Source of the DNA: a virus
Lineage: Duplodnaviria; Caudoviricetes
Direction: 5' to 3' (one strand)
Virus record (IMG/VR): IMGVR_UViG_3300017774_005323
Span: 1 to 57,107 of that record
Length of the DNA stretch: 57,107 nt
Part shown: positions 16,635 to 56,198 of the stretch, one piece after another
Numbering within the stretch: the stretch's first letter is position 1
How the letters are laid out: each line of letters opens with the position of its first letter
Translations under genes and position numbers: made by a program
Notes under the pieces: generated by a model
Databases searched by the model: none
Told to the model about the DNA's origin: nothing
Seen by the model: only the letters and a program-made list of their open reading frames with translations

Positions 16635-16725
16635 TACGTTGGTCGATTAAAAGTGTGCGTTTGTCGATAAATAAGGCACGTTCGTCGATACGATGGGAAA
16701 AATTAGGATGGCGCTATTATCTTTG
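16635..16725 (+). promoter_or_regulatory. Triple-box promoter P1
   Basis: GTCGAT at 16642, 16663, 16684; TATCTTTG at 16718. Confidence 0.85.
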
Positions 16726-16761
16726 TAAGGTCAATAAGACAAAACGCAAAAAATAAATAAC

Positions 16762-16995
16762 ATGGAATTGTCATCGAACTTACAAGGAAAATCACAACAA
16801 GAAATAATTGAAGCCGCTCATAATGTAGCGTGTAATTCATTTATAAAAAATGGCAACAGGGCAGTACCCTTTACTGAAAACAATGAACTTCGCCTTTTGG
16901 TAGGCGGGCAGTATTCATCTTACGAAGAATTGTCTAAACTTATAATTACTGCATACAACCAAATGCAATGCGATTTAATACTTGCAAATATGTAG
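16762..16995 (+). CDS. Small accessory protein (P1 cassette)
   Basis: 77 aa between P1 and a terminator. Confidence 0.7.
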   Translation: MELSSNLQGKSQQEIIEAAHNVACNSFIKNGNRAVPFTENNELRLLVGGQYSSYEELSKLIITAYNQMQCDLILANM

Positions 16996-17015
16996 CAGTT
17001 TTCTAAGCCAAACAA

Positions 17016-17047
17016 AACGCCTTGCACATCGCAGGGCGTTTCTTTTT
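17016..17047 (+). terminator. Intrinsic terminator
   Basis: aaacgccttgc-acatc-gcagggcgttt plus T-rich tail. Confidence 0.75.
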
Positions 17048-17103
17048 GTGTTACATATTTGGCGGTCTGATACTTATGTGCTACATTTGTGGAAACAAAA
17101 AGC

Positions 17104-17307
17104 ATGGAAGAAAAAACAAAACGACCGCGACAAAAAGGAATCGGCAAAGGTAGGCCAACCCTTCACGGGGTTAAAATGGTCACAATGACTTTACGCATTT
17201 TGCCCGAAAACAAAGAATGGTTAACGGCGCATTTCGGGCCTAAAAATGTTTGCCGCGAAATAAACAATTTATTCACCAAACTAAGGCAAAATGAAGAAGG
17301 AATATAA
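17104..17307 (+). CDS. Ribbon-helix-helix (Arc/CopG-like) regulator
   Basis: GKGRP followed by VTMTLRILPENKEWL beta-alpha-alpha pattern. Confidence 0.55.
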   Translation: MEEKTKRPRQKGIGKGRPTLHGVKMVTMTLRILPENKEWLTAHFGPKNVCREINNLFTKLRQNEEGI

Positions 17308-17476
17308 ACCGCTCGAAAAGATCACCGTCGAACCAAAAGACAACTTTACGCACAACGGGCAAATAAAAAGCGCCCTTGTGAGAATTGCCGATCTTAAAGA
17401 ACAAATTGCAGACCTCAAAGTTGAAATAGAACTATTAAGGCAACGTTTGCGACTTTTTGAAGGGCATTTGAAATAA
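17291..17476 (+). CDS. Small coiled-coil protein
   Basis: Heptads IADLKEQIADLKVEIELL. Confidence 0.6.
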   Translation: MKKEYKPLEKITVEPKDNFTHNGQIKSALVRIADLKEQIADLKVEIELLRQRLRLFEGHLK

Positions 17477-17502
17477 ATCATTCATCACTAAATAAAAAAC
17501 GC

Positions 17503-18264
17503 ATGGAAAAGGATTTAATTCCGCAGTTAATTGGCCGCGAAGAAATTGCAACGCTCGCACGGGCCGGGGTAATTCCAGCAAACACGCCGCCTGACATTCT
17601 GAAAGTGTTTGCTATTACGGCAAACCAGCATAAACTTTCACCGTTCAAAAAAGAAATCTATCTGATACCCTACAAGGGCACTTACAGTATCATTGTAGGC
17701 ATTGACGGGATGCGGGCAAAGGCGGCACGTTCGGGCCTGGCAGCAGGGAAAGACGATGCAAAGTTTGACTTGCAAGCCGATGGAACATACCAAACGGCGG
17801 CGCAACTTGTAAACGGCAAACACTACCCAACATCTTGCACGGTTACGGTGTACAAGGTTGTTGGCGGTACACGTTGCCCGTTTACAAAAACCGTTCTTTT
17901 CCGGGAATATTGCCCCGCAAACCCGCCCGCAACAAGCAAATGGCTTACCATGCCGTTTAATATGATCGAAAAGGTTGCAGAAGCACACGCTTTGCGCATG
18001 GCTTTTGCAGATGAAGTTGCCGGGCTTAATATCGAGGAGGAGGAGTACGCTATTCAAGATTTGACAATCGAATCTGTAAAGGGAACTGAGCAGGAAGAAG
18101 CATACCTGCATGAAGACTATGTGAGCGAGATCATTGCTTGCAAAACCAAGTCCGAATTAAAGGCGCTTTACGAGCGCCAAAAACAAGGGTTTGAAAACGG
18201 TACGAAACTGGCAGCGCTTTACTACGATGCTATTGTTAAGCATGGAAAAAGCCTACCTGAATGA
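17503..18264 (+). CDS. recT: RecT/Red-beta ssDNA annealing protein
   Basis: LSPFKKEIYLIPY...VGIDGMRAKA and WLTMP..MIEKVAEAHALRMAF. Confidence 0.88.
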   Translation: MEKDLIPQLIGREEIATLARAGVIPANTPPDILKVFAITANQHKLSPFKKEIYLIPYKGTYSIIVGIDGMRAKAARSGLAAGKDDAKFDLQADGTYQTAAQLVNGKHYPTSCTVTVYKVVGGTRCPFTKTVLFREYCPANPPATSKWLTMPFNMIEKVAEAHALRMAFADEVAGLNIEEEEYAIQDLTIESVKGTEQEEAYLHEDYVSEIIACKTKSELKALYERQKQGFENGTKLAALYYDAIVKHGKSLPE

Positions 18265-19175: not shown

Positions 19176-19195
19176 ACAATAAAAAACGCTAAAAA

Positions 19196-19597: not shown

Positions 19598-19599
19598 TT

Positions 19600-20255: not shown

Positions 20256-20391
20256 ATAAAGTGTGCCAATTTTTAGCCCTGATATTGCAAAACAGTATCG
20301 GGGCTTTTTATTTCCTGTAACTTTGCACTATTAAGTAGTTGATAAACAATTCATTGGCATATACTTTGCACATTTAAAAACAAAAAACCGC

Positions 20392-21393: not shown

Positions 21394-21462
21394 GCGCTAA
21401 AGATATGGGAAATTGGTTTGGTGAATGAGTGGGCCGCTTGGATGAAAATTCGAGCGGCTTTT

Positions 21463-21553
21463 TACGTTCGTCGATGGTTTTTGTACGTTGGTCTATAAAA
21501 AGCGATGTTTGGTCGATGCGGTGGTAAAAATTAGGATGGCGATATTATCTTTG
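21463..21553 (+). promoter_or_regulatory. Triple-box promoter P2
   Basis: Boxes at 21470, 21491 (GTCTAT), 21512; TATCTTTG at 21546; preceded by a terminator at 21432-21463. Confidence 0.85.
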
Positions 21554-21585
21554 CTACATCGTTTAACAAATAAAATAACGCAACA

Positions 21586-21864
21586 ATGCAAATCACAGAA
21601 ACAACAGACGAGGTGCTTAATATTTTAGGCGTAAAATTTGAGTACCAATCAAATTATTCAGGTCACGGGGGCCGAATAATTGACCCAGGGCCATTTAAGG
21701 GATTAAATTTGCGCCCCTCTATTTGTACGCGCCCTGGATTTTGGTATGCCGATATTCCAGACGGGCAAGACAAGGAAATGGAGCAGGTTTTTTCCGGGCA
21801 TTTTTTTCGCAGAAGCGACGGCTATCCAATTATTTCGGCTGGTTTAGCGCCAAGTTTAAAATAA
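21586..21864 (+). CDS. Small accessory protein (P2 cassette)
   Basis: 92 aa between P2 and a terminator at 21879-21909. Confidence 0.7.
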   Translation: MQITETTDEVLNILGVKFEYQSNYSGHGGRIIDPGPFKGLNLRPSICTRPGFWYADIPDGQDKEMEQVFSGHFFRRSDGYPIISAGLAPSLK

Positions 21865-22006
21865 AAAAAAATTGACTTAAACGCCCTGCACAAAATGCGG
21901 GCGTTTTTTGTTAATGTCCAACCATTCCACAAAATTATGTGTTACATATTTGGTAGTTTAACACAAATGTAACACATTTGCACACACAATAAAAAACGCA
22001 AGAAAA

Positions 22007-24870: not shown

Positions 24871-24912
24871 CACACAATACACACAAAAAGCGCCCTACTC
24901 CAAGGGCGCTTT

Positions 24913-25003
24913 TCTTTTCGTCGATCATTTGCTTACGTTCGTCGATAAAAACGGTACTTTGGTCGATACGGTGTTGACAGCGCGCATTTATGTGTTATCT
25001 TTG
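24913..25003 (+). promoter_or_regulatory. Triple-box promoter P3
   Basis: GTCGAT at 24920, 24941, 24962; TATCTTTG at 24996. Confidence 0.85.
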
Positions 25004-25036: not shown

Positions 25037-25249
25037 ATGTCAAACGCACAAACAAATATCACATTTTTAAGCCGCATATCTTCAGCGATGAAAGCCGATG
25101 TTCTTTCCAATATCGCAAACCATTACGGCATAACAAATGAACAGGCCGAAGAAGAAGTAATAGACGGCGAAGCAGAAAACATTATGGAGTACATTACGGG
25201 GCCGCAAAGGAGCGCAATTCATTTGATTTACAAAAAAGTAATGGCATAA
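25037..25249 (+). CDS. Small accessory protein (P3 cassette)
   Basis: 70 aa; AAAACGCA leader. Confidence 0.7.
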   Translation: MSNAQTNITFLSRISSAMKADVLSNIANHYGITNEQAEEEVIDGEAENIMEYITGPQRSAIHLIYKKVMA

Positions 25250-25280
25250 GCCGATTTAATCACCACCAAAAACAACTTAT

Positions 25281-25472
25281 ATGGACTGCATTACAGTTTA
25301 TTTTCACGGCCAATCCCTGCTTTTGCAAAAAGATTATGCTGATTTGAAAGGATTGAAACAGGGTTACAAAATTAAATCAGAAAGCAAATTTTGGGAAATC
25401 CTTGGAGGTTACGCAGAACACCAAATTTCAAAACTTGAAATGCTGATTGAGGCAAAGAAAAGCGTAAACTAA
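25281..25472 (+). CDS. Small accessory protein
   Basis: 63-aa ORF with A/C-rich leader. Confidence 0.65.
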   Translation: MDCITVYFHGQSLLLQKDYADLKGLKQGYKIKSESKFWEILGGYAEHQISKLEMLIEAKKSVN

Positions 25473-25504
25473 ACCATTACCACTAAAAAAATAAAACGCA
25501 AACA

Positions 25505-25720
25505 ATGACAACCGCACAACAAATACAATTCGCTGCAAGTGTTCAAATTGGAACACAAATAGAAATGGGCAATGATTCGGTTTTAACTGTTACCGAGATA
25601 GGCAAACATTCGTTTGTTGGAACCTTAAAAGTAAAAGGCCGTCAAATTAACGATGAATGTCTTTTAACTTTTCAAACCATTTCAAATCCGCACTACAATA
25701 AGAACTTGCGCATAATATGA
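25505..25720 (+). CDS. Small beta-rich accessory protein
   Basis: 71 aa; AAAACGCA leader. Confidence 0.65.
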   Translation: MTTAQQIQFAASVQIGTQIEMGNDSVLTVTEIGKHSFVGTLKVKGRQINDECLLTFQTISNPHYNKNLRII

Positions 25721-26616
25721 GCAATCTTATTCAAACACTCCTAAGCCTGTCCGGTTGGACGGGCTTTTTTATCTGCTTTTTGCTAGTTTGGTGCATTTGG
25801 CAGTTTAACAGGCTGCTTTATTTCGCCGTGAAATGGCTTGTACGAGCATTGCGCTTCATTGCGCCCGCTATTGTGCGCCCGACCTTAACGCGCTTATTTG
25901 TGTGTGCTACGTTTGCGCTGTGCCTGTTTTTATGGCGCTTGCAAGTTTCGGACGCTTTACAGTATGTGGAGCAAATGTATATTGCGCCCGTGTACGCTAT
26001 GCCTGACACTTCAACACACGCTTTGGCATGTTTTGAAGCGAAGGCGAAAAAGCACCTGGATAGTTATGAGTTTGAAACATTCAAAAGCGAAACCGCAAGC
26101 ATCGCAGCCCAAACAGGTAGTACACCGCTTGCGTTTTACATGGTGTACCTATCTGAATGCGGCATGAATCCGTTTATTATTCGAGAAGATGGCAATGCGG
26201 CCGGGCCTATCCAATTCACGCGAACAGGTTTAGAGGGGCTAAAAATTAATGACAAACCCGCTACCCTTGACATGGTAAAAGCCATGTGTGTAAAGCGTGA
26301 CATATCGGGCTTAATGCGCCTGACACGGGAATATATGATCGACCGGGCAAAGGGCAAACCGCTTAAAAGACCGTGCGATGTATACACATGCGTTTTTGCA
26401 CCGTCTTTTGTGGGGGCTGATGAAAGCACGGTTTTGTACCAAGGCTATCAAAACCCGCAATACTACAAAAACGCTGGCTTAGACGGTTATCGAATCGTAA
26501 ACGGGCGCTACGTTCGCCTAAATGCGTATTGTGATGGAAAATTAACTATTTCCGACCTTGCAATATCGCTCGAAGCAAAAAAGGCGGCAGTGCTCCGGTC
26601 GTTTGTCGATAAATAA
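25717..26616 (+). CDS. Membrane-anchored lytic transglycosylase/lysozyme-fold protein
   Basis: Two N-terminal TMs; LSECGMNP...AAGPIQFT, DVYTCVFAP, YYKNAGLD...DGKLT. Confidence 0.7.
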   Translation: MSNLIQTLLSLSGWTGFFICFLLVWCIWQFNRLLYFAVKWLVRALRFIAPAIVRPTLTRLFVCATFALCLFLWRLQVSDALQYVEQMYIAPVYAMPDTSTHALACFEAKAKKHLDSYEFETFKSETASIAAQTGSTPLAFYMVYLSECGMNPFIIREDGNAAGPIQFTRTGLEGLKINDKPATLDMVKAMCVKRDISGLMRLTREYMIDRAKGKPLKRPCDVYTCVFAPSFVGADESTVLYQGYQNPQYYKNAGLDGYRIVNGRYVRLNAYCDGKLTISDLAISLEAKKAAVLRSFVDK

Positions 26617-26667
26617 GGCACTTTGGTCGATAATGAAAAATTACCAAAGTTTTCCGTTTTACATTTG
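26598..26667 (+). promoter_or_regulatory. Double-box promoter P4
   Basis: GTCGAT at 26605, 26626; TACATTTG at 26660. Confidence 0.8.
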
Positions 26668-26697
26668 CATATTATTTCACAACAAAATTTCATTCCA

Positions 26698-27045
26698 ATG
26701 AAAAAAGCATTTCTTTTTCTTTGCCTGTTTGCCCCGATGCTTGCCTTTTCGCAACAGGGCAAAACATACCCGGTCACTTTTGCGGAACACCAAACCGATC
26801 AAATTGACATTTTCCGTTTCAAAACGGTAAAAATTAGTTTTGTTCAAAAATCAGATTTTCAGTACGATGTGCTGTTTGATTTTTACAACGGCAAACACTA
26901 CTACGAATCCGTTAGGCGCATCCCAAACGAAAGCGATGTAATGGTTTTCACAAACAAAAATCACGGACGCTACGAGGTTGCTTGCGTTTCTGGTACTGTG
27001 GTTTATTTCCAAAACGGTTTTAAAGCCACCGTTTATGAAAACTAA
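26698..27045 (+). CDS. Small exported protein
   Basis: MKKAFLFLCLFAPMLAFS|Q signal peptide. Confidence 0.7.
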   Translation: MKKAFLFLCLFAPMLAFSQQGKTYPVTFAEHQTDQIDIFRFKTVKISFVQKSDFQYDVLFDFYNGKHYYESVRRIPNESDVMVFTNKNHGRYEVACVSGTVVYFQNGFKATVYEN

Positions 27046-27736: not shown

Positions 27737-27885
27737 TAACACAACCCGGCACCGAGCCGTTTTTGACCAAATACTTTGACCCGGAAAACCACTGGCAAAG
27801 CGGTATGGTAGTTTTTAATATCGTCACTTGTGAATACACCACAGACGGCGTGAATTGGCAGCCTTTAAATGAAGATCAATTATGA
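27727..27885 (+). CDS. Small hypothetical protein (52 aa)
   Basis: Fills the gap between neighbours; ATGA overlap with the next gene. Confidence 0.55.
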   Translation: MYLITQPGTEPFLTKYFDPENHWQSGMVVFNIVTCEYTTDGVNWQPLNEDQL

Positions 27886-28163
27886 GCCAAAAAAGGGAGT
27901 TTACAGGGGTTTTTATACCCGCGCACATTTGGTACTCAAAAGAGTTAACGCCGGATGAAAAGTACATTTTGGTTGAAATGCTTTTGCTTAATTACACCAA
28001 TGAAGGCCCGGAATCCTTGACAAAACATCTTGCCGATGCTATGCAATGCACACAGGACAGTTTGATAGACCCGATCTTGAATTTACAAAAATTTGGCTAT
28101 ATTGTCATAGACAAAGAAAAGGGTAAAATATGGTTAACCGATCTTTTAATGTCTAAATCCTAA
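27882..28163 (+). CDS. Winged-HTH protein resembling a replication-initiator N-terminus
   Basis: REFTGVFIPAHIW.SKELTPDEKYIL...HLADAM...NLQKFGYI. Confidence 0.65.
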   Translation: MSQKREFTGVFIPAHIWYSKELTPDEKYILVEMLLLNYTNEGPESLTKHLADAMQCTQDSLIDPILNLQKFGYIVIDKEKGKIWLTDLLMSKS

Positions 28164-28168: not shown

Positions 28169-29020
28169 ATGAGCCAACTTAAAAAATCAAGTACAAGCAT
28201 AAATGAAAACGCCCGTAAAAGCATGGGCATAACACGCGATGAATACGCGCTTTGCTCTTATGCGCTTTACCGTTGTGCAGACCCGCGTATGAAGTTGGTC
28301 GGATGGTGTACCGATACCAAAGACGATGTAGCGGATTTTGTGGGCATTACGCGCCCTGGGCTTTACAAAATGATCGCACGTTTGGAGCAAAGCGGGCTTT
28401 TGGAAACGCAAGCGGGAACGGGTTTTTTCCGGGCAACGGCGCAATTTATTGACATTCAAAATGGCACCGAAAGCAAAGAAAATGCAAAGCAAGATTGTAA
28501 ACAAAGTTTACAGCAAGAAAACGAAAGTGTAAACAAAGTTTACAGCGAGTGTAAACAAAGTTTACAAGGCAGTGTAAACAAAGTTACGGGTAATATAGAG
28601 GTACAGTTAGATATTAGTATGAATAAGGTTAATAGTGAGGCAGATTTAAAACCTTTGCCTAAAAACAAAAAAAAGGAAAATGAAAAAACAGCCGCCGCCG
28701 CCGAAATTTTGGCGCACCTCAACGAAAAAGCCGGGCGGTCGTTTGATGTAAAAAACCCGCAAACCCAAAAGTATGTCATTGCCCGACTAAATGAAGGAAT
28801 GAGCATCGAAGAAGCAAAGCGGGTAATTGATTTTAAGGTTATGAAATGGAATCCTGATGCGAACATGCGCCAATACTTGCGACCTGACACGCTCTTTAGC
28901 GGAAAATTTACGATCTATTTAGAGGAAGCAACGCCCAAAAAACCAAAACCACAACCGCAAAGCGAAGGCCAAAGCGCAACAAGCGGCGCAATTATCAAAA
29001 ACGGCATTGAATGGTTTTGA
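28169..29020 (+). CDS. Replication initiator (wHTH plus conserved phage C-terminal domain)
   Basis: VADFVGITRPGLYKMIARLE HTH; ILAHLNEKAG...YLRPDTLF; internal iterons. Confidence 0.85.
   Translation: MSQLKKSSTSINENARKSMGITRDEYALCSYALYRCADPRMKLVGWCTDTKDDVADFVGITRPGLYKMIARLEQSGLLETQAGTGFFRATAQFIDIQNGTESKENAKQDCKQSLQQENESVNKVYSECKQSLQGSVNKVTGNIEVQLDISMNKVNSEADLKPLPKNKKKENEKTAAAAEILAHLNEKAGRSFDVKNPQTQKYVIARLNEGMSIEEAKRVIDFKVMKWNPDANMRQYLRPDTLFSGKFTIYLEEATPKKPKPQPQSEGQSATSGAIIKNGIEWF
28496..28587. repeat. Replication origin iterons
   Basis: Palindromic TGTAAAC-AAA-GTTTACA at 28496, 28528, 28550 and a partial copy at 28573, followed by AT-rich DNA. Confidence 0.88.
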
Positions 29021-29354: not shown

Positions 29355-30751
29355 GTACAATCGTTACAAACCCGACCTTTGTCGATCCGTTTTTAGATAC
29401 GGAAATATTCAAAAAGTACAAAACAGCCGAAAGCATTATCACTTGCAGGATGGTTGCCGAGCCGTACAACATGCTGACAATTGCAAAGCATTTGAAGCCG
29501 TGCATGTTTTTTGCAGATAACAAGGTAGCTTTGGCTTGCCTGGAACTATACAAACTAAACCAGTCGTACGGCGCTTTCAGTATTGCGCAAAGAGCAGGCA
29601 TGGAAAGTGAGGTTGTTATGCAAATGACAGAACGCCACAGCGAAACGGATTTGATAGAAGCGTTCGAGGTATTTAAAACGATTTGGGGGCAATATGTCGA
29701 AGTGCATAAAGTTGCGCAAAGTGTTATTAAGTGGGCAATGGAAGGCAAAACGAGCGAAGAAATAAAGATACTATCCGACAAAGTGCGCAAAGAAATGGGC
29801 GCTACAATTGCGCAGGAAGACAGCGACGGGAAAAAAGAATTTGAAGCAGCGCTTTTTGCTTCGATTGATGGCAAAGTTATCGACTACCCTGTTAAGCCGC
29901 CAATTGACACTTTACGCCACAAGTTACCGTACTTAGAGCCTGGAGAATACGCTATTGCAGCAGGTCGCACGGGCATGGGAAAATCATTTTTTGGACTAAA
30001 CTGGATTTACGAATGTTGCAAAAATAATATCCCGTCTGTGTACATAAATTTGGAAAACACCCCAAAAGACGTACAAAAGCGGTTGTGGCAAATGGAATGC
30101 GGGGTAAAGTGGAACACGGACTTTTCGAAAGCGAGTGAATCGGAAATGCAGCACTATTTAGATTCGTGGGAGCGGGTAAAGAAGTTCCCTGCAAAGTGCA
30201 TTAATCCGGGACGAAGTCTTCAATCTATCCTTAACTTTTTGCGACAAGAATACTATGAAAGGGGCATACAATTTGCAACGATTGACTACATTCAGTTAAT
30301 GCGAGAAAAGGAAATACGCGGGGGCCGGGTAGATGAAATTGCAGAAATTAGCGCTGCGGTGCGTTCGCTTTGCCTTGAACTAAACATACCGCTTTTGGCG
30401 CTTGCTCAAATAAGCCGGGCGGGCGAAGAAAGTGCCGACAAGCGGCCAAAAATGATACACTTACGCGGTTCGGGCGATTTGGAGCAGGATGCAAGTACGA
30501 TTTTCCTTTTGTACCGCCCTGGATATTACAACATCGTTTGCGATGATAGCGGTCTGCCATACCATGAAAAAGCAGCCGAAATAGAAATCGCAAAAGGTCG
30601 GAATTGCGGGCCGTTTGGCGTTCGATGCAGATTTGATGAAGTGCATGGATTTTACAGCGAAAATGATACTTTTGTGGAGCAAGAAAAAATACAATGGTCG
30701 GGGTATAGCCAAATGGAAAGGCCCGCAAACATTAAAGACATACCATTTTAA
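29351..30751 (+). CDS. dnaB: DnaB-like replicative helicase
   Basis: AGRTGMGKS, IDYIQL, LAQISR, LRGSGDLEQDA, IAKGRN. Confidence 0.95.
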   Translation: MSTIVTNPTFVDPFLDTEIFKKYKTAESIITCRMVAEPYNMLTIAKHLKPCMFFADNKVALACLELYKLNQSYGAFSIAQRAGMESEVVMQMTERHSETDLIEAFEVFKTIWGQYVEVHKVAQSVIKWAMEGKTSEEIKILSDKVRKEMGATIAQEDSDGKKEFEAALFASIDGKVIDYPVKPPIDTLRHKLPYLEPGEYAIAAGRTGMGKSFFGLNWIYECCKNNIPSVYINLENTPKDVQKRLWQMECGVKWNTDFSKASESEMQHYLDSWERVKKFPAKCINPGRSLQSILNFLRQEYYERGIQFATIDYIQLMREKEIRGGRVDEIAEISAAVRSLCLELNIPLLALAQISRAGEESADKRPKMIHLRGSGDLEQDASTIFLLYRPGYYNIVCDDSGLPYHEKAAEIEIAKGRNCGPFGVRCRFDEVHGFYSENDTFVEQEKIQWSGYSQMERPANIKDIPF

Positions 30752-31757: not shown

Positions 31758-31994
31758 ATGTCAACATTAAAAAGCGAAGCCACTAAAAGCCAAAACCGCC
31801 GCATTATTGAACACCTCTTAAAGTACCGCGAAATAAACCCAAAGCAGGCGCAAACTTTGTACGGGTGTATGCGCCTTGCCGCTCGTATAAATGATCTAAG
31901 GCGCGGCGGGGTTAAAATCCTGACTGATAAAAAATCTTACAAAAACGCGGCGGGGCATAATGTTTCCTTTGCTGTTTATCGGCTCGCAATATGA
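31758..31994 (+). CDS. Winged-HTH protein
   Basis: QNRRIIEHL...YGCMRLAARINDLR.GG..I. Confidence 0.75.
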   Translation: MSTLKSEATKSQNRRIIEHLLKYREINPKQAQTLYGCMRLAARINDLRRGGVKILTDKKSYKNAAGHNVSFAVYRLAI

Positions 31995-33230: not shown

Positions 33231-33304
33231 GCGAAGGAGTAAGAATAAAAAAAGGATTGTTGGTTTTGATTAAGCGGTGCGATGTATTTCGTGCCGCTTT
33301 TTTT

Positions 33305-33353
33305 GTCGTTTGTCGATAAAAGTTTGGAATTGTTAAATTGTGTGTTACATTTG
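33305..33353 (+). promoter_or_regulatory. Single-box promoter P5
   Basis: CGTTTGTCGAT with GTCGAT at 33312; TACATTTG at 33346. Confidence 0.7.
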
Positions 33354-33388: not shown

Positions 33389-33745
33389 ATGCAAAAAGAA
33401 ACACCAGACTGGGAAAATGCTCCAACGTGGGCAAAGTATTATGCGGTTGAACCGGACGGGCGATCGTTTTGGTTTGAAAACACTCCTAAACCAACATTTG
33501 ACCTTTTTGAAGACGGTTCAAACATCGAAGGATGGTTCTCAGAAATTGTTGAAAACAGGGTAGGGAGGTTTGAGCATTGCGGGTACTCCACATTTGAGGA
33601 CTGGACAAAAACGCTGCAATCCAGACAAACACAATCTGTACAACCTGCAAAGGGCATGGTCATTGGGTTAAGTATGCAGCCCGAATTTTTCAAAGTAGGC
33701 AAAGGCCGAAACATGCACACGGGTTGGCCTGATAGCAGTTTTTAA
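33389..33745 (+). CDS. Hypothetical phage protein
   Basis: PDWENAPTWAKYYAVEPDG.SFWF...DWTKTL.SR, a pattern seen in small phage proteins. Confidence 0.7.
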   Translation: MQKETPDWENAPTWAKYYAVEPDGRSFWFENTPKPTFDLFEDGSNIEGWFSEIVENRVGRFEHCGYSTFEDWTKTLQSRQTQSVQPAKGMVIGLSMQPEFFKVGKGRNMHTGWPDSSF

Positions 33746-33769: not shown

Positions 33770-34018
33770 ATGGCAAGTTGTGAAAAATGCTGGTCGGATG
33801 CTTATGTTAGGAGCATAGAAAACCCAATGAAAACCCAAACAGAGCATTATCAAGACCTTTTAAAAGAAAGAATTGAATATCGTTGTACGCCCGAACAACA
33901 AGCGGGCATATCTGCCGATTTTTGCCCTAAATGCAAAAGGAATACGTTGCATCAACATACAAAACGTTGTGTTATTTGCTCATATTTCCCCTTTTTAAAA
34001 TCACATTTAGCGGTTTAG
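33770..34018 (+). CDS. Zn-binding small protein
   Basis: CEKC, CPKC, CVIC. Confidence 0.65.
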   Translation: MASCEKCWSDAYVRSIENPMKTQTEHYQDLLKERIEYRCTPEQQAGISADFCPKCKRNTLHQHTKRCVICSYFPFLKSHLAV

Positions 34019-34157
34019 TGTTTATCTGATAAAACAAGGGACAATAAACAGCAAACACTTTGCCCGTGCCACATTGGTACGGGCTTTTTTATTGCCAATA
34101 TTTTGAAAATAAACTATCTTTGTAGTGCAAAAAACCAAACTATTTGCCTGTCATTCA

Positions 34158-37028: not shown

Positions 37029-37096
37029 GAAAAACTAAGAAAAAAATAAATGGTTTGAATAAGGCCCGTTCGCTTGTCGTTCGGGCTTTATTTTTT

Positions 37097-37186
37097 GGTT
37101 TTGGTCGATAAATGGGTTAATTTTTGAAAAGTGCGTATAAAAGCACGGTTAAAAGTTTGCGCTTTGGTATTTATGTAATACATTTG
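37097..37186 (+). promoter_or_regulatory. Degenerate box promoter P6
   Basis: TTTGGTCGAT with GTCGAT at 37104, 75 bp before TACATTTG at 37179 (distal-box position is 76). Confidence 0.55.
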
Positions 37187-37215
37187 TGCATCATTCAATC
37201 ATAAAACGCAACGCA

Positions 37216-37596
37216 ATGTACAAGCCGCACAATTTCACCGCCAAAGTATTATTTTCTTCCGAAAATCCATCTTTAAACCTATCATTCGATGTTGAATACG
37301 CTGTTGAGTGTATTATCACAATTGACACAGAAGAAGGAACGGCAGAAGGCTTTGAGATTATACGCTCAGCCGTCCAAAACGGAACCTACGATGATGGCGA
37401 AACAGTATTAATGTCTGCCTGGGCATTGATTGATCCTAAAAAAATAAGCCGCAAAACATTTTCTGCCATTAATGAGGCCGTAGTGCAAGAGTTTTTCGAT
37501 GCGCTCGAAAAAGGCGGCGGCGATGGAGAGTATCAAAGCGAAGAATTTCCGGTACTGCCAGCGATGGCAGTATCGGAGTACGCACCGATTTTTTAA
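37216..37596 (+). CDS. Acidic hypothetical protein
   Basis: 126 aa; AAAACGCA leader. Confidence 0.65.
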   Translation: MYKPHNFTAKVLFSSENPSLNLSFDVEYAVECIITIDTEEGTAEGFEIIRSAVQNGTYDDGETVLMSAWALIDPKKISRKTFSAINEAVVQEFFDALEKGGGDGEYQSEEFPVLPAMAVSEYAPIF

Positions 37597-37598
37597 AA

Positions 37599-38072
37599 AT
37601 GAAATTACCCCGTTTTGAACACCTTTACCTAATCTTTGCCCCGTATGCGATGCCATACCGGGCGAAGATTGGTATTAGCATTGCAGCGAAGCAAAGAAAA
37701 GAACAGATAAAAGCGGAACTACGTCCGATGTTTGGGAACGTGACCGTGTACGCCGTAGGATTGCCCGTATTGTACGCTTATCAGATCGAACAGCGCCTAC
37801 ACCGTTTATTTGCCCGCTTTCAGTACAACGGCATACGCCACACAAACGGCGGTAGCGAGTGGTTTTGGTCTGTCAATTGGGTTTCGTGCTTAATCCTGTC
37901 AATTGTGCAATACTTTTGGTTAAGCGAAAGGCTTTTGTTATTGCCGTTTTTTGCTTTGTTGATTCCTTTGCCGATTGACTTTTTATTATTAACTTTGCTT
38001 ATATTCGCTTTTCAGTGGTCGATCATTTTGGGCGGCTTTTATGGAGCGTTTTGGGCGTTAAATTTGTTTTGA
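37599..38072 (+). CDS. T5orf172/GIY-YIG-like domain fused to TM helices
   Basis: AKIGIS...R...IEQRLHRLF...GGSEWF then hydrophobic C-terminus. Confidence 0.65.
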   Translation: MKLPRFEHLYLIFAPYAMPYRAKIGISIAAKQRKEQIKAELRPMFGNVTVYAVGLPVLYAYQIEQRLHRLFARFQYNGIRHTNGGSEWFWSVNWVSCLILSIVQYFWLSERLLLLPFFALLIPLPIDFLLLTLLIFAFQWSIILGGFYGAFWALNLF

Positions 38073-38075
38073 AAA

Positions 38076-38714
38076 ATGGCAAAAATCCTTAAAGTATCTG
38101 ACATGCGCGAATTTGAAGCGCAATTGGCACAAGAAAAAATCACATATGGGCGCATGGTTGAATTGATCGAAGAAAAGGTTTTGCAGGGGTGTATTCCAAA
38201 GGTTGATCTTTTGGCACAACTTGATAAAATGATTGAACAGGCAAAGGAAGCGGCAATGCTATATGAAGATAAAAATATGCCGATCTCTAAGCAGTCTTCC
38301 GGGGCTATGGCAATGGCATATCACTTAGTCAAAAATTGGGTTTTAAATCATATTTTTATGGAAGATAACGAAATCCCAAAAACGCCAAACTACGCTCCAA
38401 AAGACCACATTTCCAAATCCGATCTTTTGGCGCAAATTGAAACTACCAGCCAGGCAATGAAAGAAATTGCGTATAATGAAGACCTTGAACTTAACGAAAG
38501 GCATCAGGCCTATAATAGATTCGCGGCGCTTCAATGGATGAAAGACTGGGTGCCGCATCTTGCAAATGTTGCGAATGCTGAAAACGGGAACTTAGGCCAA
38601 CACGAAAACACGCCAAACCCAATGCAAGCACGTTGCTTAAAATGCAAGCACGAATGGAAAATTGAACTACCAGCGATTTACAAAGAAACGTTTTGCCCGA
38701 ATTGCGGCGAGTAG
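38076..38714 (+). CDS. Hypothetical protein with internal repeat and Zn ribbon
   Basis: Two I.K.DLLAQ...K.WV repeats; CLKC...CPNCG. Confidence 0.6.
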   Translation: MAKILKVSDMREFEAQLAQEKITYGRMVELIEEKVLQGCIPKVDLLAQLDKMIEQAKEAAMLYEDKNMPISKQSSGAMAMAYHLVKNWVLNHIFMEDNEIPKTPNYAPKDHISKSDLLAQIETTSQAMKEIAYNEDLELNERHQAYNRFAALQWMKDWVPHLANVANAENGNLGQHENTPNPMQARCLKCKHEWKIELPAIYKETFCPNCGE

Positions 38715-38846: not shown

Positions 38847-40151
38847 ATGGAAAACGAAATAAAAAAAGTAAGGGTTAAGGATCTGGTTTTAAACCCGATT
38901 AACCCGCGAACGATAAAAGACGAAAAGTTTAAGCAACTAAAAAAGTCTATATCAGAGTTTCCCGAAATGCTCGCAGCGCGGCCCATCGTTGTAAACAGCA
39001 AGATGGAGGTACTAGGCGGCAATATGCGCCTTCGCGCAATGCTTGACCTGGGCATTGAATACGCAAACGTTGTAGTTACCAATTTCACAGACGAGCAGCA
39101 AGCCGAATTTATTATCAAAGACAACCTTTCCTTTGGTGAGTGGGATTGGGATGCCCTGGCGAATGAATGGGACACGGAAAAGTTGCAGGATTGGGGCTTG
39201 GATATTCCATCTTATGCGCAATATGATGAAGAAGAAAAAGAGGCATCAAAAAAAGATGCTACCGACAGTTTACGAGCAAAGTTTATTGTACCTCCGTTTT
39301 CAATTCTTGATACTCGGCAGGGATATTGGCAGGATCGAAAACGAGCATGGCGTGAGATAATTGGTGATAATGGTGAAAGTCGTGAAAACAAATTGTTCAC
39401 CAGCCCGCCGACAAATCCGGTAAGCAAAAAACTACAAGAGTCCGGAGGCGTTTCACTTCTCGACCCGGTTCTATCTGAAACAATTTGTCATTGGTTTGCT
39501 GTACCAAACGGAACGGCATTTGATTGCTTCGCTGGTGATTCTGTTTTTGGATATGTAGCGGCCTATACCGGACAAAAATTTACTGGTATCGAGTTGCGTC
39601 AAGAACAAGCAGATCTAAATGCAGCCCGAGTAGCGGGGATGTCAGCGCAGTATATTTGCGATGATGGGCAAAATGTTTGTAATCATATAGAGCCGGAAAG
39701 CCAAGATTTATTTTTTAGTTGCCCGCCATATTTTGATCTTGAGGTTTACAGCGACCTTGAAAATGATGCAAGCAATCAAGGATCATATCCGGATTTTCTG
39801 CAAATATTAAAAAATGCATTTACCGGCGCGATCAAGTGCTTGAAGCCTAACAGATTTGCTGTTGTTGTTGTTGGCGACATACGGGATAAAAATGGGTTTT
39901 ACCGTTGTTTCCCCGATGATATTAAAGCCATTTTTAAGGAGCAGGGTGTTCTTTTTTACAGTGATCTTATACTCATCGAGGTTATTGGAACGGGTGCATT
40001 GCGGGCCTCTAAACAAATGGGAAATCGAAAGCCTGTAAAGTGCCACCAAAACGTATTGGTATTTTACAAAGGCGATCCAACAAAGATCAAAAGCATCTAT
40101 CCAAAAATTGAAATACCTGAAACAGATGGAAGCCAGGATGTGGAACTTTAG
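38847..40151 (+). CDS. ParB-like N-domain fused to an amino-MTase-like domain (start may be 38826)
   Basis: NPINPRTI...GGNMRLRA...IIKDN; FDCFAGDS (motif I), GIELR, SCPPY (motif IV). Confidence 0.85.
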   Translation: MENEIKKVRVKDLVLNPINPRTIKDEKFKQLKKSISEFPEMLAARPIVVNSKMEVLGGNMRLRAMLDLGIEYANVVVTNFTDEQQAEFIIKDNLSFGEWDWDALANEWDTEKLQDWGLDIPSYAQYDEEEKEASKKDATDSLRAKFIVPPFSILDTRQGYWQDRKRAWREIIGDNGESRENKLFTSPPTNPVSKKLQESGGVSLLDPVLSETICHWFAVPNGTAFDCFAGDSVFGYVAAYTGQKFTGIELRQEQADLNAARVAGMSAQYICDDGQNVCNHIEPESQDLFFSCPPYFDLEVYSDLENDASNQGSYPDFLQILKNAFTGAIKCLKPNRFAVVVVGDIRDKNGFYRCFPDDIKAIFKEQGVLFYSDLILIEVIGTGALRASKQMGNRKPVKCHQNVLVFYKGDPTKIKSIYPKIEIPETDGSQDVEL

Positions 40152-40434
40152 TGCTTGGGTGTCAATTACAGAGCCTGCGGATATTTTGGCGTATTATGAA
40201 AAAGCGCTTAATGATTCCGGATTTTGCATAGTAGGGAAGGTGGAGCATCACTTTGATCCGCAAGGGTACACGGTGTTAATATTGCTTAGCGAGAGCCATT
40301 TTGCGGCGCATACATTTCCCGAACATGGCACGACATACATTGAGTTGAGCAGTTGTGTTCCGGGGCCGTTTAATCGGTTCCTTGCAATGACAAATGCGGA
40401 AACGAAAAGATCCGAAAATATCCCGTTAAATTAG
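40126..40434 (+). CDS. speD: S-adenosylmethionine decarboxylase proenzyme
   Basis: HHFDPQGYT...LLSE|SHFAAHTFPE...SSC pyruvoyl-enzyme motif. Confidence 0.9.
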   Translation: MEARMWNFSAWVSITEPADILAYYEKALNDSGFCIVGKVEHHFDPQGYTVLILLSESHFAAHTFPEHGTTYIELSSCVPGPFNRFLAMTNAETKRSENIPLN

Positions 40435-43747: not shown

Positions 43748-43838
43748 AACGTTTGTAGATGGAAACGTGCCGTTCGTCGGATTTTTTGGCACGTTTGTCG
43801 ATACGGTTTTAAAATTTGATACCCCGATATTATCTTTG
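43748..43838 (+). promoter_or_regulatory. Triple-box promoter P7
   Basis: Boxes at 43755 (GTAGAT), 43776 (GTCGGA), 43797; TATCTTTG at 43831. Confidence 0.82.
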
Positions 43839-43892
43839 TAACATCAAAGCAGCGAAGCAATAATGCAAGGCTGCATAAAAAACGCAAAGAAA

Positions 43893-44045
43893 ATGAGCAT
43901 CGAAACAATGAAAGCCCGCACCGAAAAAGAATTAATCAAAATGGGTATTGAAGCAAATGAGGCAAAAACCATGATTGAGAAGTTTTGGAACCAGGTCGAA
44001 TATTTGAAAACAGCAAGAGGCAAGGCGCTTTATATGATAGCATAA
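43893..44045 (+). CDS. Small accessory protein (P7 cassette, 50 aa)
   Basis: AAAACGCA leader; terminator at 44064-44097. Confidence 0.65.
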   Translation: MSIETMKARTEKELIKMGIEANEAKTMIEKFWNQVEYLKTARGKALYMIA

Positions 44046-44136
44046 AATTGGTTTTATAATCACAAAACCCCAATACTTAACTGTGTTGGGTTTTTTTGTT
44101 TTAATCTCCTTATATTTGTGTCAACTTTTGCACAGT

Positions 44137-50221: not shown

Positions 50222-50312
50222 TCCGTTCGTCGATCAAAACACTACGTTCGTCGATGATTTATGTACGTTGGTCGATACGCGCTTTGCAGAACTGATTTGT
50301 GTGTTATCTTTG
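50222..50312 (+). promoter_or_regulatory. Triple-box promoter P8
   Basis: GTCGAT at 50229, 50250, 50271; TATCTTTG at 50305. Confidence 0.88.
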
Positions 50313-50342: not shown

Positions 50343-50648
50343 ATGAAAAGCGCAATTTTTAGTTCAGCCTGGGCAATCAAACGCCAAAACCCAACAGCAA
50401 CATTTTCCTGGTGTTTGCGCAAGGCGTGGGCGGCGCACAATTTGCGCCAGCGCATGCAAAAAGGCGTGGAAAAGTTTGAGTTTATCAAAGCAGACGGCAC
50501 TGTGCGCTTTGCCATTGGAACTTTGGACGCAAATCAAATTTCATACGAGGCAAAAGGCGGACGCAAAAGCAGCGATTCGACAATCGTTTATTTTGATTTG
50601 GATGCAAACGAGTTTCGGTCTTTTCGTATTGATAGACTTTGTGCATAA
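50343..50648 (+). CDS. WYL-like SH3-barrel protein (DUF2693 type)
   Basis: FEFIKADGTVRFAIGTL...YFDLDANEFRSFRID. Confidence 0.8.
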   Translation: MKSAIFSSAWAIKRQNPTATFSWCLRKAWAAHNLRQRMQKGVEKFEFIKADGTVRFAIGTLDANQISYEAKGGRKSSDSTIVYFDLDANEFRSFRIDRLCA

Positions 50649-50671: not shown

Positions 50672-50935
50672 ATGAGAATCCGGTTAATACTCAAAAATGC
50701 TTACGAATGGGAAACGTTTACGGGCATGCACACAAACCGATCAGGGGATTTTAGAGCGCACGAAAACTTTTCTATACCCGAAAGCGGTATCATTTCTTTT
50801 GAGCAATTAGAGGCAACATCGCAGGATGGGGACACAAAAGAAAGCCATTACCAATATTTTGAAAAAAGACAATACAAACTTATACTTTCATCAAAATACC
50901 CGAAAATAACATGGGCAACGTTTGAGGAGGTGTAA
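50672..50935 (+). CDS. Small accessory protein (P8 cassette)
   Basis: 87 aa; AAAACGCA leader; hairpin at 50966-50997. Confidence 0.65.
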   Translation: MRIRLILKNAYEWETFTGMHTNRSGDFRAHENFSIPESGIISFEQLEATSQDGDTKESHYQYFEKRQYKLILSSKYPKITWATFEEV

Positions 50936-51035
50936 ATAAAGATAAACTTTTCATAAGATTGCGCATAAGCCTGGACTACAATGGTAGTTCGGGCTTATCT
51001 ATTTGTAAAAATGCCGTACTTTTGCAAAAAAAACA

Positions 51036-53966: not shown

Positions 53967-53968
53967 AA

Positions 53969-55678
53969 ATGGCAATTACAATAATATCCGATCCGGGCGA
54001 AAGCGTAGGATACCCATACACAGGCACAAAGCCGCTGCCAATACCAGTAAGCGATTGCCTTTCTTGGTGTTTGCAGCCCGATACAGCCGACGTAATAACC
54101 GGGGCCGGATCGAAAGCAACGGTTGTTTTCACAATCCCGGCAACCCCTACCGTACCCGCAAACGGAACGGTTTTAAAAGTGTGGGGCTATACGTTTACTG
54201 TTCAATCAGGCAGCAATTATACAAGCAATTCTTTCAAGGTAACGACCAACGGCATAGAAACAGCGGCTAACCTTAGAAACATGCTGAATAGCAATATTAA
54301 GTTTGCAAAGGCTGGCAGCGCTGTACTTGCTTTAGGTGGCACAATTACTGTCACGTTTTCATGGGACGATTGCCGCGAACAAGGCAATTTCACCGGGGCG
54401 AACATGGTATTTACTGCGATGACCTCAATGGGCGGCACGGGCGGCGCGGTGGCAACAAACGGGGCAACACCTACCTACTCAAACGGCTATCAGTTAGTTG
54501 TTAGGCTTGTGAAATGGGACAGTGCTACAAGCGCACATATACCCGTGACTGAATTTGAAGCGATCAATGTAAAGCGCGGTTGCGCAAGCGTGGAAAGCGA
54601 ATGCGTGGACTATATGGCGGCTGCAAAAAAGGTGGTGTTTACTCCTATGCCCGATTTATCCGACAGTTCCGAAATCGCGTCGACGCTTGACACGGTAACA
54701 GGCCGCTTTGCATTGCAATACGGTTGGACGTACCGCGATGAATCTTGCCAGGTGCTTTACGGCACTACCCTACAATCGGAGGATTATTTGGTTATGAATG
54801 CGGTGTTTCCAATACAGGAAACTTACAAAACGCGGCGCTTTTTTGATTCAAATTTACCGTCCTTTGTTTCTAATCCGCAATTTATGAGTAACCAGCCGTC
54901 TATTTTGCGGCTTACAGAAACTTCCTTTGCATGGCTATGGATGTACAACGGCTGGGTAAATGCGCGGCCAACGGCAACATCTTACCAACTACGCATCCGC
55001 ATTTTTAAAGTAGGCACTGCTACGCTTTTCGATACGGTTTTGGTAACATACACCCTTGCTGATTGGTGGCAATGTGTTTGCGCGAATGTTTCTGTTTCGC
55101 GTGTTGTAACGCTGTCTACCCTTATTTCGAGTGCGTCTGAAATCGACTACTACACATGCCGTATTGAAGTTATGGCAACTTCAACAGTATTAGACCAGAC
55201 GCAAGACGTGCGCTACTCAGTAGATCATTCATGCGCAAATAACGACAATGTAACCGATCTATATTTTGTCAGTCCTTACGGCGGTATATGCACAATCATT
55301 TGCGATATTGATGACAAAACAATTAACAGCGAATTTAACGAAATCGCTTTGGATGTACCTTGCACAACAGCAATAAACGAGAAAGCGAAATACCAGGGAC
55401 TTTCAGCACAAGGGTTAAGCGCTTACGAATCTTACACGCTTACGGTCGTAGACGATTACAGCGCCGAACAGGTGGAGTATTTTAAATCTGTGAAATCAGC
55501 GCCCGAACACTGGATAAAGGTGCAGGATGTCAGGCCCGAACTATCAGACATAGGATATACAGCCGTGCGCTTTTTGCCCGATGCGGACGGCATACAAATT
55601 TTCCAGCGCGGCGAAACGATTGCGCTACGATTGACAGGGCGCATTGCGCGGGACTTGCCTACACAATTGCCGAAATAA
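53969..55678 (+). CDS. Distal tail/baseplate structural protein (putative)
   Basis: 569 aa directly after the tape measure; LYFVSPYGG motif. Confidence 0.65.
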   Translation: MAITIISDPGESVGYPYTGTKPLPIPVSDCLSWCLQPDTADVITGAGSKATVVFTIPATPTVPANGTVLKVWGYTFTVQSGSNYTSNSFKVTTNGIETAANLRNMLNSNIKFAKAGSAVLALGGTITVTFSWDDCREQGNFTGANMVFTAMTSMGGTGGAVATNGATPTYSNGYQLVVRLVKWDSATSAHIPVTEFEAINVKRGCASVESECVDYMAAAKKVVFTPMPDLSDSSEIASTLDTVTGRFALQYGWTYRDESCQVLYGTTLQSEDYLVMNAVFPIQETYKTRRFFDSNLPSFVSNPQFMSNQPSILRLTETSFAWLWMYNGWVNARPTATSYQLRIRIFKVGTATLFDTVLVTYTLADWWQCVCANVSVSRVVTLSTLISSASEIDYYTCRIEVMATSTVLDQTQDVRYSVDHSCANNDNVTDLYFVSPYGGICTIICDIDDKTINSEFNEIALDVPCTTAINEKAKYQGLSAQGLSAYESYTLTVVDDYSAEQVEYFKSVKSAPEHWIKVQDVRPELSDIGYTAVRFLPDADGIQIFQRGETIALRLTGRIARDLPTQLPK

Positions 55679-55711
55679 CCTTATATTTGTCAAAACAAAA
55701 ACATCAATAAA

Positions 55712-56053
55712 ATGAAAAAACTGAATGATTTAATAGCGGTTACCCTTATTTTTTCGGGCGTTCTTATTTTGGCCTATCAGTGCCACAAAGAGGAGTGTGA
55801 AATATTTGGCGCATGGAACTACCGCACCATCGTACAAGGCGATACGACAAAATCAGTCTATTGTTTCACCAAAGATTCAATGATAATCGTTTTTCGCGGT
55901 AAAACAGCAAACGGGCGGCTATCCATTCCCATTTCAGTAACGCCAAACGAAATAAACGTTTTCGATGCAAAAGGGCAAGTTTGGCCCTACGAAAACACAT
56001 GCGATACGCTTTTGATAAACACAGGAACAGAAATCCAGGTGTTTTGGAGATAG
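55712..56053 (+). CDS. Membrane-anchored or lipoprotein lipocalin-like protein
   Basis: TATATTTG at 55682; N-terminal hydrophobic helix then C; IFGAW; terminator at 56078-56113. Confidence 0.55.
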   Translation: MKKLNDLIAVTLIFSGVLILAYQCHKEECEIFGAWNYRTIVQGDTTKSVYCFTKDSMIIVFRGKTANGRLSIPISVTPNEINVFDAKGQVWPYENTCDTLLINTGTEIQVFWR

Positions 56054-56107
56054 AGTTAGGTTTATGGGGTTAAATGGGGCTGGCATCTGCAAAGATGCTG
56101 GCTTTTT

Positions 56108-56198
56108 TATTTTGGTCGATCAAAAGCCTACGTTCGTCGATAAATAAGGCACGTTGGTCGATACGTTTTAAAAATTTGATACCCCTATACTATCTTTG
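56108..56198 (+). promoter_or_regulatory. Triple-box promoter P9
   Basis: GTCGAT at 56115, 56136, 56157; TATCTTTG at 56191. Confidence 0.88.

Follow-up and report, generated by a model that had tools for sequence, protein, structure and literature searches.

Regulators of the LytTR family bind short direct repeats, which are given in the accessible text of PMC4847170 as 9–11-nt repeats with 11–13-nt spacers and no common consensus, and in that of PMC4064291 as repeats of 8–13 bp lying about 12 bp apart. One such regulator, AlgR, leaves footprints on CCGTTCGTC, CCGTTTGTC and CCGTTGGTC (accessible parts of PMC4064291 and PMC4787818). Here, we report that the virus record IMGVR_UViG_3300017774_005323 (Caudoviricetes), analysed over its whole length of 57,107 bp and referred to as the window, harbours nine sites at which 22 yACGTTnGTCGAT-type boxes, without exception on the + strand, are spaced in 21-bp phase ahead of cassettes of small genes. 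On balance, these boxes are probably tandem sites for a LytTR activator that would be supplied by the host and would control the cassettes. Known LytTR promoters (AgrA at P2/P3, AlgR at algD, fimU and mucR, ComE, PlnC/D and YpdB) are like those of the phage in carrying imperfect direct repeats of about 9–12 nt with a period of about 21 bp just 5' of the promoter. The phage differs in that triplets are the rule, the regulator gene is not on the element, the promoters are of the TAnnTTTG type of Bacteroidota and the sites are known from sequence alone. Bacterial LytTR operons with boxes upstream would represent autoregulation of the regulator's own operon. AlgR sites, unlike the phage boxes, are often not arranged in 12-bp-spaced pairs, according to the accessible text of PMC4064291.

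Regulation of phage genes by a host two-component system is known from cyanophages, where the host PhoBR controls genes through Pho boxes 5' of pstS and of S-PM2d genes (accessible text of PMC10976474). As read here, the phage boxes resemble these Pho boxes in being sites for a response regulator of the host ahead of several phage genes, which would tie these genes to host physiology; the cyanophage case differs in regulator family (OmpR/PhoB versus LytTR), in host phylum and in its degenerate boxes, some of which are confirmed by electrophoretic mobility shift assay in the same text, whereas the present boxes, predicted from the DNA only, are near-consensus, multiplied and placed in terminator-insulated cassettes. 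Phages with agrBCD and without agrA, such as phiCDHM1, may use the AgrA of the host, and Pseudomonas phages encode LytTR proteins, as stated in the accessible text of PMC11945551. The agr phages carry signalling genes, whereas the phage of the window carries DNA sites only, and many of them. No description of host-LytTR boxes in phage promoters was found in literature searches on LytTR with Bacteroides small RNAs, on LytTR with bacteriophages and morons, and on Bacteroidetes phage promoters. Morons, reportedly introduced by Hendrix and colleagues as autonomous promoter–gene–terminator insertions in lambdoid and other phages, are like the cassettes in being small accessory genes with their own promoter and terminator, located between conserved operons and variable among close relatives. 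In classical morons the promoters are unrelated and expression is typically from a prophage; the nine units here, by contrast, have a regulatory module in common, and 82 open reading frame (ORF) queries brought no integrase to light. The arrangement is thus not categorically new, host two-component control of phage genes and morons both being known; what is new is the proposed involvement of the LytTR family, the triple-box module in its reusable, insulated form, the setting in Bacteroidota and the putatively autoregulatory motif now visible in bacteria. To our knowledge, transcription control in phages of Bacteroidota is almost unknown, and hardly any of the numerous LytTR regulators of this phylum has a known DNA site.

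With at most one mismatch, ACGTTNGTCGAT was matched 18 times in the window, exclusively on the + strand, against 0.59 expected and a maximum of 4 in 100 shuffles, and 19 of the 24 exact GTCGAT on the + strand lie inside the nine sites. A position weight matrix scan found 21 boxes at the coordinates given in the preliminary description, which had counted six triplets, one doublet and two singles with a period of 21 bp; the 22nd box (43776) holds a 1-nt insertion (CGTTCGTCGGAT) that keeps the 21-nt register. The same organization was recovered by a repeat search without prior motif, as a 33-nt unit occurring 14 times, 21 nt apart, and a 112-nt promoter module occurring five times, and the numbers and period reported earlier are borne out. 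Identity among the promoter modules is 60–80% over about 100–130 nt at five or more places. In correction of that description, the boxes at 21491 (GTCTAT) and 43755 (GTAGAT) deviate from the motif, and an extra lone box-like 12-mer (29375–29386) is intragenic and has no promoter. The last GTCGAT starts exactly 34 bp before TAnnTTTG, ahead of a predicted start point, in eight of the nine sites. This register, also claimed previously, is confirmed by the pattern GTCGAT-N28-TAnnTTTG, with eight matches in the window and not one across 100 shuffles. The outlier is P6, with a single box 75 nt from the -7 element.

An alignment of 12 distinct promoters, taken from the window and from related fragments in IMG/VR and anchored at the -7 element, showed three high-information boxes at fixed positions between drifting spacers, each a 12–13-nt box with the high-information core CGTTnGTCGAT. 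The period is exactly 21 nt in every doublet and triplet, including those with a 1-nt insertion in a box. Since the inserted-base boxes CGTTCGTCgGAT and CGTTCGTCcGAT retain 21 nt from CGTT to CGTT, the recognised core looks like (C/A)CGTTnGTC. The core written out as (C/A)CGTT(C/T/G)GTC equals the AlgR site letter for letter, variable position included (CCGTT(C/T/G)GTC, in the accessible parts of the AlgR sources above). In direct repetition, in spacer and period, and in position just 5' of a predicted promoter, the boxes have the architecture of LytTR sites. The earlier designation as LytTR-type boxes is supported by this fit, by the AlgR core and by the conservation of box pairs at bacterial LytTR operons described below. 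The preliminary description had also quoted a consensus, [TA][AC][CA]GTTN[AG][TG], whereas according to PMC4847170 LytTR regulators have no consensus in common. We are highly confident that the boxes are transcription-factor sites controlling the cassette promoters, and the factor reading them is very likely a LytTR-domain protein.

A function outside transcription, with the repeats acting as replication iterons, as partition or packaging sites or as recombination sequences for cassette exchange, is barely credible. The similarity of the modules at five or more places, the inversion of one cassette and the different cargo of others in the related fragment G305 and the presence of a gene for a ParB_N-domain methylase would agree with such a function, and the modules may also double as recombination substrates. 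However, the nine sites are dispersed, co-oriented with transcription and locked 34 bp from the -7 element, which is not the arrangement of iterons, the bacterial copies lie in promoter regions, and tandem repeats at 28486–28549 are the likelier candidate for a replication origin.

The intergenic promoters of the window have the TAnnTTTG -7 element typical of Bacteroidota, a promoter type named for this phylum in the accessible text of PMC11697453, and the sequences 5' of start codons were A-rich without a GGAGG-like motif in the stretches read. From these promoters and A-rich, GGAGG-free leaders, we infer that the host belongs to the Bacteroidota. A complete module would consist of an optional upstream terminator, one to three boxes, a sigma-A-type TAnnTTTG -7 element, an A-rich leader often with AAAACGCAA, the cargo and a terminator, with boxes centred roughly 46, 67 and 88 nt 5' of the presumed start point. 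LytTR monomers would occupy one face of the helix in 21-bp steps and recruit the host RNA polymerase, and the nine accessory cassettes would fire only while the host regulator is active. Activation is suggested by the position of the boxes and by the frequent lack of a well-placed -33 TTTG, which was missing from most of the boxed promoters as read. The regulator is most likely that of a LytS-type kinase/LytTR two-component pair of the Bacteroidota host.

The same host regulator could instead be bound mainly for titration, the boxes acting as a decoy that withdraws it from host promoters during phage replication, or for repression or insulation. A decoy would profit from 22 sites per copy of the phage genome, against 1–3 in most box-positive bacterial genomes, and from triplets, the rule in the phage, where most bacteria have pairs. 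These reasons notwithstanding, we hold such a main role to be quite unlikely, as a pure decoy would not need the constant distance of 34 bp to the -7 element seen in eight of nine sites, and boxes 5' of the -33 region of promoters that mostly lack a well-placed -33 TTTG would be in the positions of an activator.

In the Bacteroidales genome G091, a phased pair is located 156 nt 5' of a gene for a PF06580 histidine kinase (7.7e-23), which is followed by a Response_reg+LytTR gene (4.5e-19). Within the Bacteroidales family of G091, an orthologous PF06580 kinase was found in 6 of 9 genomes at E≤1e-60 (45–58% identity, one 41%), and five of these six orthologues have a phased pair with conserved boxes 155–218 nt upstream on the same strand, the 41%-identical one being without; a LytTR-domain gene follows the kinase in all eight loci tested. 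In Polluticaenibacter yanchengensis (G709, Chitinophagaceae) a pair at C11:27619–27647 occupies the divergent region beside a kinase/LytTR operon, and in G715, another member of the Chitinophagaceae with a regulator 77% identical to that of G709, the boxes are kept and the spacer has changed. Seven paralogous places with 41–66% identity, examined in the comparison with Polluticaenibacter, had no boxes. In Marinifilum caeruleilacunae, one pair lies immediately 5' of a gene whose product, a membrane protein of 531 aa, carries a LytTR domain at its C-terminus. A rough chance estimate from the counts of sites and genes, with Marinifilum left out, predicts about 0.13 genomes in which a LytTR gene has a site no more than 2 kb away, and 2 were observed before conservation among orthologues is counted. 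The preliminary description had proposed, as a check, to scan candidate host genomes for the phased motif near lytTR genes; in the bacterial genomes examined, conserved pairs occurred upstream of the operons or alongside them in five plus two species and in Marinifilum. Profiling of LytTR orthogroups was also tried: one orthogroup was present in all four box-positive gut-type genomes profiled, with no member above 45% identity in 60 random Bacteroidales, and a second in three of the four versus 2 of the 60 at 49–50% identity. This was rejected as evidence because it most likely reflects the relatedness of the four genomes.

A two-box scan over 185,579 species genomes returned at least 120 loci, most of them coding heptad repeats or 7-bp microsatellites. 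Among the matches listed, eight Bacteroidales loci show the geometry of the phage, with two boxes separated from TAnnTTTG by a gap of 28/29 nt; seven of them precede a predicted short transcript and one lies directly ahead of a lipoprotein gene. One genome holds three such promoters, and a geometry-constrained scan of metagenomes added eight more loci of bacterial and phage type. In six of the seven short-transcript loci, a hairpin and a U-run come after a conserved single-stranded stretch, the seventh (L129) being divergent. The candidate small RNA (Table 1) would be about 65–95 nt long and is composed of conserved, single-stranded GTTAATnnATtGGGAtAtAAAAG and a species-specific hairpin with U-run, the 3' hairpin being predicted in 6/6 single folds (z -1.4 to -5.4). 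None of these loci matched an Rfam family at gathering score; GibS gave a weak antisense match of 35.9 bits against a cut-off of 115. On seven sequences, RNAalifold predicted no common pairing, a consequence of hairpins whose sequences vary and become misaligned. In build, the candidate resembles the FopS small RNAs in the accessible text of PMC11697453, a likeness that does not amount to a family assignment. At L129, a contig of a Bacteroides sp. metagenome-assembled genome (MAG), the two-box promoter is positioned just 5' of a run of genes guessed, from N-terminal sequence, to be tra-like genes of a conjugative transposon, and this site may have travelled on a mobile element, in a genome without a detectable LytTR gene.

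In M. caeruleilacunae (G708) there are 31 phased pairs (15 + 16), mostly within triplets, against one match of the control pattern. These are either the sites of an extensive LytTR-type regulon or copies of a promoter element that is repeated. At L311, L314 and L316–L329 of this genome, triplets followed by ATCGCTTG are found ahead of varied genes, and several of these loci are at contig ends.

The preliminary description had seen no LytTR gene in the phage, and searches with profile hidden Markov models (HMMs) agree. A six-frame PF04397 search of the window gave no match at E≤1 with positive controls working, the same domain was not found at E≤0.1 in the phage sequences G305–G309, including the complete 72-kb G306, and with a tailored LytTR HMM, built from 24 Bacteroidota proteins and applied without filters to 738 reading frames, the lowest E was 1.5. 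In the Pfam scans of the window, comprising the 82 ORF queries, neither an integrase nor a sigma factor nor a recognisable family of activators came up, and the only transcription-factor families were those of small helix-turn-helix (HTH) proteins: an HTH_39 at 31758–31994 (6e-12), a weak HTH_36 at 27882–28163 and a weak sigma70_r4/HTH_23 at 3520–3807. The absence of a cognate LytTR gene from the phage replicon points to a host factor. Box pairs or triplets are also present in G306, in G307 and in the fragments L303, L304 and L306, none of which has a protein in common with the window by tblastn at E≤1e-3; hence no common phage-encoded binder is visible. Since the same architecture is found in bacterial chromosomes and no protein is common to the box-bearing phages, the factor is likely encoded by the host. 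The earlier claim of a host response regulator is thereby supported as to host origin; the regulator need not be a response regulator, because the boxed gene in Marinifilum encodes a membrane-sensor LytTR protein. In the preliminary description, the phage was further proposed to sense the state of its host through the boxes, whose number might grade the response. In G307 (L240, 15485–15700), a phage unrelated to the window, three boxes are combined with a TTGACT-17-TATATT promoter and a gene with a Shine–Dalgarno-like AAGGA, which suggests a host outside the Bacteroidota, and the box type is apparently also used by a phage of such a host.

A protein of the phage itself, be it a small HTH protein or one whose fold escapes recognition, could nevertheless bind the boxes and define a temporal class of middle or delayed promoters in the manner of T4 MotA or Mu Mor/C. 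Most phage proteins could be assigned to no family, small HTH proteins are at hand, and the boxes do not extend beyond a narrow clade of phages: G310, a distant relative which has only terminase (58%), RecT and nuclease in common with the window, contains one chance-level box and no 7-mers phased at 20–22 bp. This alternative is nonetheless unlikely, given that bacterial chromosomes without this phage contain the same pairs, conserved there ahead of LytTR operons, that unrelated box-bearing phages have no protein in common with the window at tblastn E≤1e-3 and that no activator family was detected in the Pfam scans. Dependence on prior synthesis of a phage activator would also be an odd fit for cassettes of small ORFans.

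Several observations weigh against a host-supplied LytTR activator. The phage apparently stems from a freshwater metagenome and has no cultured relatives from which a host could be named. In the five box-positive gut-type genomes G001–G005, no LytTR gene was found near the boxes, and one of them, the 2.6-Mb MAG G001, has no LytTR match at all. The box-adjoining regulators of different orders are only about 38–41% identical, so that no single orthologue can be named, and at the bacterial autoregulatory sites the gap between box and -7-like element is about 34 nt as judged by eye, not the 28 nt of the phage. The exact architecture occurs in just 3 of 301 sampled Bacteroidales genomes, and with at most one mismatch in 9 of 401 sampled Bacteroidota genomes against 7 for a reversed control pattern, a background level; accordingly, these samples revealed no regulon in any plausible freshwater host. 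Finally, more than half of the phage proteins are ORFans, which leaves room for a phage factor of unknown fold.

The findings in G001–G005 could also mean that a host regulator of another family, for instance of AraC/XylS or OmpR/PhoB type, reads the boxes. Half-sites of AraC/XylS proteins can likewise repeat every 21 bp, and this direct-repeat period is not unique to LytTR; G001 is box-positive without a LytTR match, in G002–G005 no LytTR gene adjoins the boxes, and near the 20 LytTR genes of these four genomes there were no phased boxes. A different family is still highly unlikely, for conserved pairs are found at LytTR operons, upstream or alongside, in the five plus two species and Marinifilum, the core equals AlgR sites, and a compact box of 9–12 nt would be unlike the bipartite 15–17-nt AraC half-site.

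If a host LytTR activator does control the cassettes, the phage would have connected a complete set of accessory cassettes to a two-component pathway of its host by means of a reusable insulated promoter module. A DNA motif would then be available for a class of Bacteroidota LytTR regulators, with conserved autoregulatory sites in the cultured P. yanchengensis and M. caeruleilacunae and predicted regulons of about 31 sites in Marinifilum and, in some gut-type Bacteroidales, of lipoproteins together with a small RNA. For genetic work in Bacteroidota, the module might in addition be used as an inducible promoter part. A more elaborate and rather unlikely proposal is that the phage exploits a LytS/LytTR envelope or membrane sensor of the host as an infection alarm, the module being both switch and sponge. 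Perturbation of the membrane at DNA entry, or a stress state of the host, would activate the kinase, and the phosphorylated LytTR regulator would fire the nine cassettes as a conditional immediate-early programme, possibly of anti-defence or takeover genes. Replication would then produce thousands of box copies that soak up the regulator and silence the host regulon, which in some Bacteroidales would include the small RNA. Such a switch-plus-sponge DNA module, if true, would be a phage regulatory strategy so far undescribed.

Each boxed module precedes one to three small and mostly ORFan genes (Table 1). That these genes are usually closed by a terminator, as first described, is borne out for seven of the nine cassettes, with predicted terminators of hairpin and T-run after P1, P2, P3, P5, P7, P8 and P9 and none after P4 and P6; P3 and P6 drive three genes each, of up to 212 aa, which exceeds the 50–130 aa first given. 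Terminators are also predicted directly ahead of the boxes in five of nine cases (P2, P3, P5, P6, where it is weak, and P9), and all nine cassettes have their own predicted -7 promoter. Unboxed TAnnTTTG elements follow the cassette terminator at P1, P5, P7, P8 and P9 and are placed so as to restart, by prediction, the large neighbouring operon. A moron is by definition an autonomous promoter–gene–terminator unit slotted between operons, and as the cassettes appear to be just such units, they fit this definition and are putative moron-like accessory units. Unboxed promoters of large operons were furthermore seen directly behind terminator hairpins at 16113–16157, 20275–20325, 34062–34122, 44069–44118 and 56485–56545, often as TTTTTATT(T/G)CC followed by TAnnTTTG, and these may form a second, recurrent class of terminator–promoter junction.

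Table 1. Boxed cassettes of the window and candidate small RNAs of six Bacteroidales genomes; promoter elements, terminators and RNAs are predicted
Feature	Position	Strand	Details
P1 promoter	16635–16725	+	GTCGAT boxes 16642/16663/16684; -7 element TATCTTTG at 16718
P1 cargo	16762–17041	+	77-aa ORFan 16762–16995; terminator hairpin 17015–17041; unboxed promoter after, 17082
P2 promoter	21431–21553	+	upstream terminator 21431–21460; boxes 21470/21491/21512; -7 at 21546
P2 cargo	21586–21901	+	92-aa ORFan; weaker terminator 21885–21901
P3 promoter	24886–25003	+	upstream terminator 24886–24913; boxes 24920/24941/24962; -7 at 24996
P3 cargo	25037–25766	+	three small ORFans of 70, 63 and 71 aa; terminator 25743–25766
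P4	26598–27045	+	boxes 26605/26626; -7 TACATTTG at 26660; no clear terminator
P4 cargo	26695–27045	+	116-aa protein with signal-peptide-like N-terminus
P5	33272–34084	+	upstream terminator 33272–33299; one box 33312; -7 at 33346; terminator 34062–34084; unboxed promoter after, 34115
P5 cargo	33389–33745, 33770–34018	+	first gene phrog_1972, function unknown
P6 (weakest member)	37072–38714	+	weak terminator 37072–37086; one box 37104; -7 at 37179
P6 cargo	37216–37596, 37599–38072, 38076–38714	+	second gene T5orf172 (E 3e-4)
P7	43748–44090	+	boxes 43755, 43776 (1-nt insertion), 43797; -7 at 43831; terminator 44069–44090
P7 cargo	43893–44045	+	50 aa; 5' leader with conserved hairpin; unboxed promoter after, 44111
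P8	50222–50998	+	boxes 50229/50250/50271; -7 at 50305; terminator 50965–50998; unboxed promoter after, 51017
P8 cargo	50343–50648, 50672–50935	+	first gene WYL_2 (PF10902, 1.8e-22; phrog_1086)
P9	56076–56507	+	upstream terminator 56076–56105; boxes 56115/56136/56157; -7 at 56191
P9 cargo	56235–56465	+	76-aa ORFan; terminator 56485–56507; unboxed promoter after, 56538
Candidate small RNA, L153	3532–3597	-	
Candidate small RNA, L169	6910–7003	-	
Candidate small RNA, L171	1256–1335	+	
Candidate small RNA, L200	1839–1905	+	
Candidate small RNA, L202	5021–5100	+	
Candidate small RNA, L207	3804–3889	-	

The same modules are found in the IMG/VR fragments L005/G305, L036, L051, L098, L241 and L242. 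G305 is syntenic with the window, has about 72–82% nucleotide identity to it where the two align and has retained the promoters P8 and P9, with another gene behind the P9 promoter and without the second P8 gene. At the place equivalent to P7, a boxed cassette (15645–15802, minus strand) is inverted relative to all other G305 genes, which suggests that the modules move or recombine. Cassettes are accordingly present, absent or swapped at the same place between these two close relatives. Regarding the cargo, a scan of 30 small proteins against Pfam gave one clear match, the WYL_2 protein, and the weak T5orf172, and for 20 cassette and HTH proteins PHROGs returned families of unknown function only.

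The leader motif AAACGCAA has 22 copies in the window against 11.2 expected and is located 5–25 nt 5' of the start codon of six first cassette genes (16742, 33377, 37204, 43880, 50330 and 56215) as well as ahead of four other genes (8998, 21994, 25494 and 50662). In a genome without Shine–Dalgarno sequences, it may be a translation or RNA-binding signal. The hairpin in the P7 leader (43839–43892, GCAGC...GCTGC) is kept in relatives (L036, about 4840–4890) despite a different downstream gene.

The window is a complete virus record whose first 123 nt recur at its end, so that the record closes into a circle, and all plausible genes are on the + strand. Pfam domains include a DnaB-type helicase, large terminase, RecT, a PDDEXK nuclease-like domain, S49/Clp and S8 peptidases, a tape measure protein, the ParB_N-domain methylase, a metallophosphatase, an AdoMet decarboxylase and a Phg_2220_C replication protein. 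A search of the window for tRNA genes found none, and Rfam gave a single, sub-threshold match, to NsiR4. In comparison with cultured phages, 24 kb of the window had no megablast match, the terminase reached at most 38% identity and the capsid protein had no match, so that relatives provide no indication of the host. The sole sequencing run with the full DNA of the window is labelled freshwater metagenome and may be the source sample; small shares of the sequence are present in four runs, and no RNA run containing it was listed.

The tandem repeats at 28486–28549 are two 32-nt copies, each with the inverted repeat TGTAAACAAAGTTTACA, within the gene for the Phg_2220_C replication protein. The S-adenosylmethionine decarboxylase domain (PF02675, 3.4e-14), assigned by size to a 108-aa ORF at 40108–40434, represents an auxiliary metabolic gene adjoining the terminase region. 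The longest ORF call at 25717–26616 begins ahead of the P3 terminator (25743–25766), and in view of a TAnnTTTG at 25908 the true start of this gene is probably further downstream.

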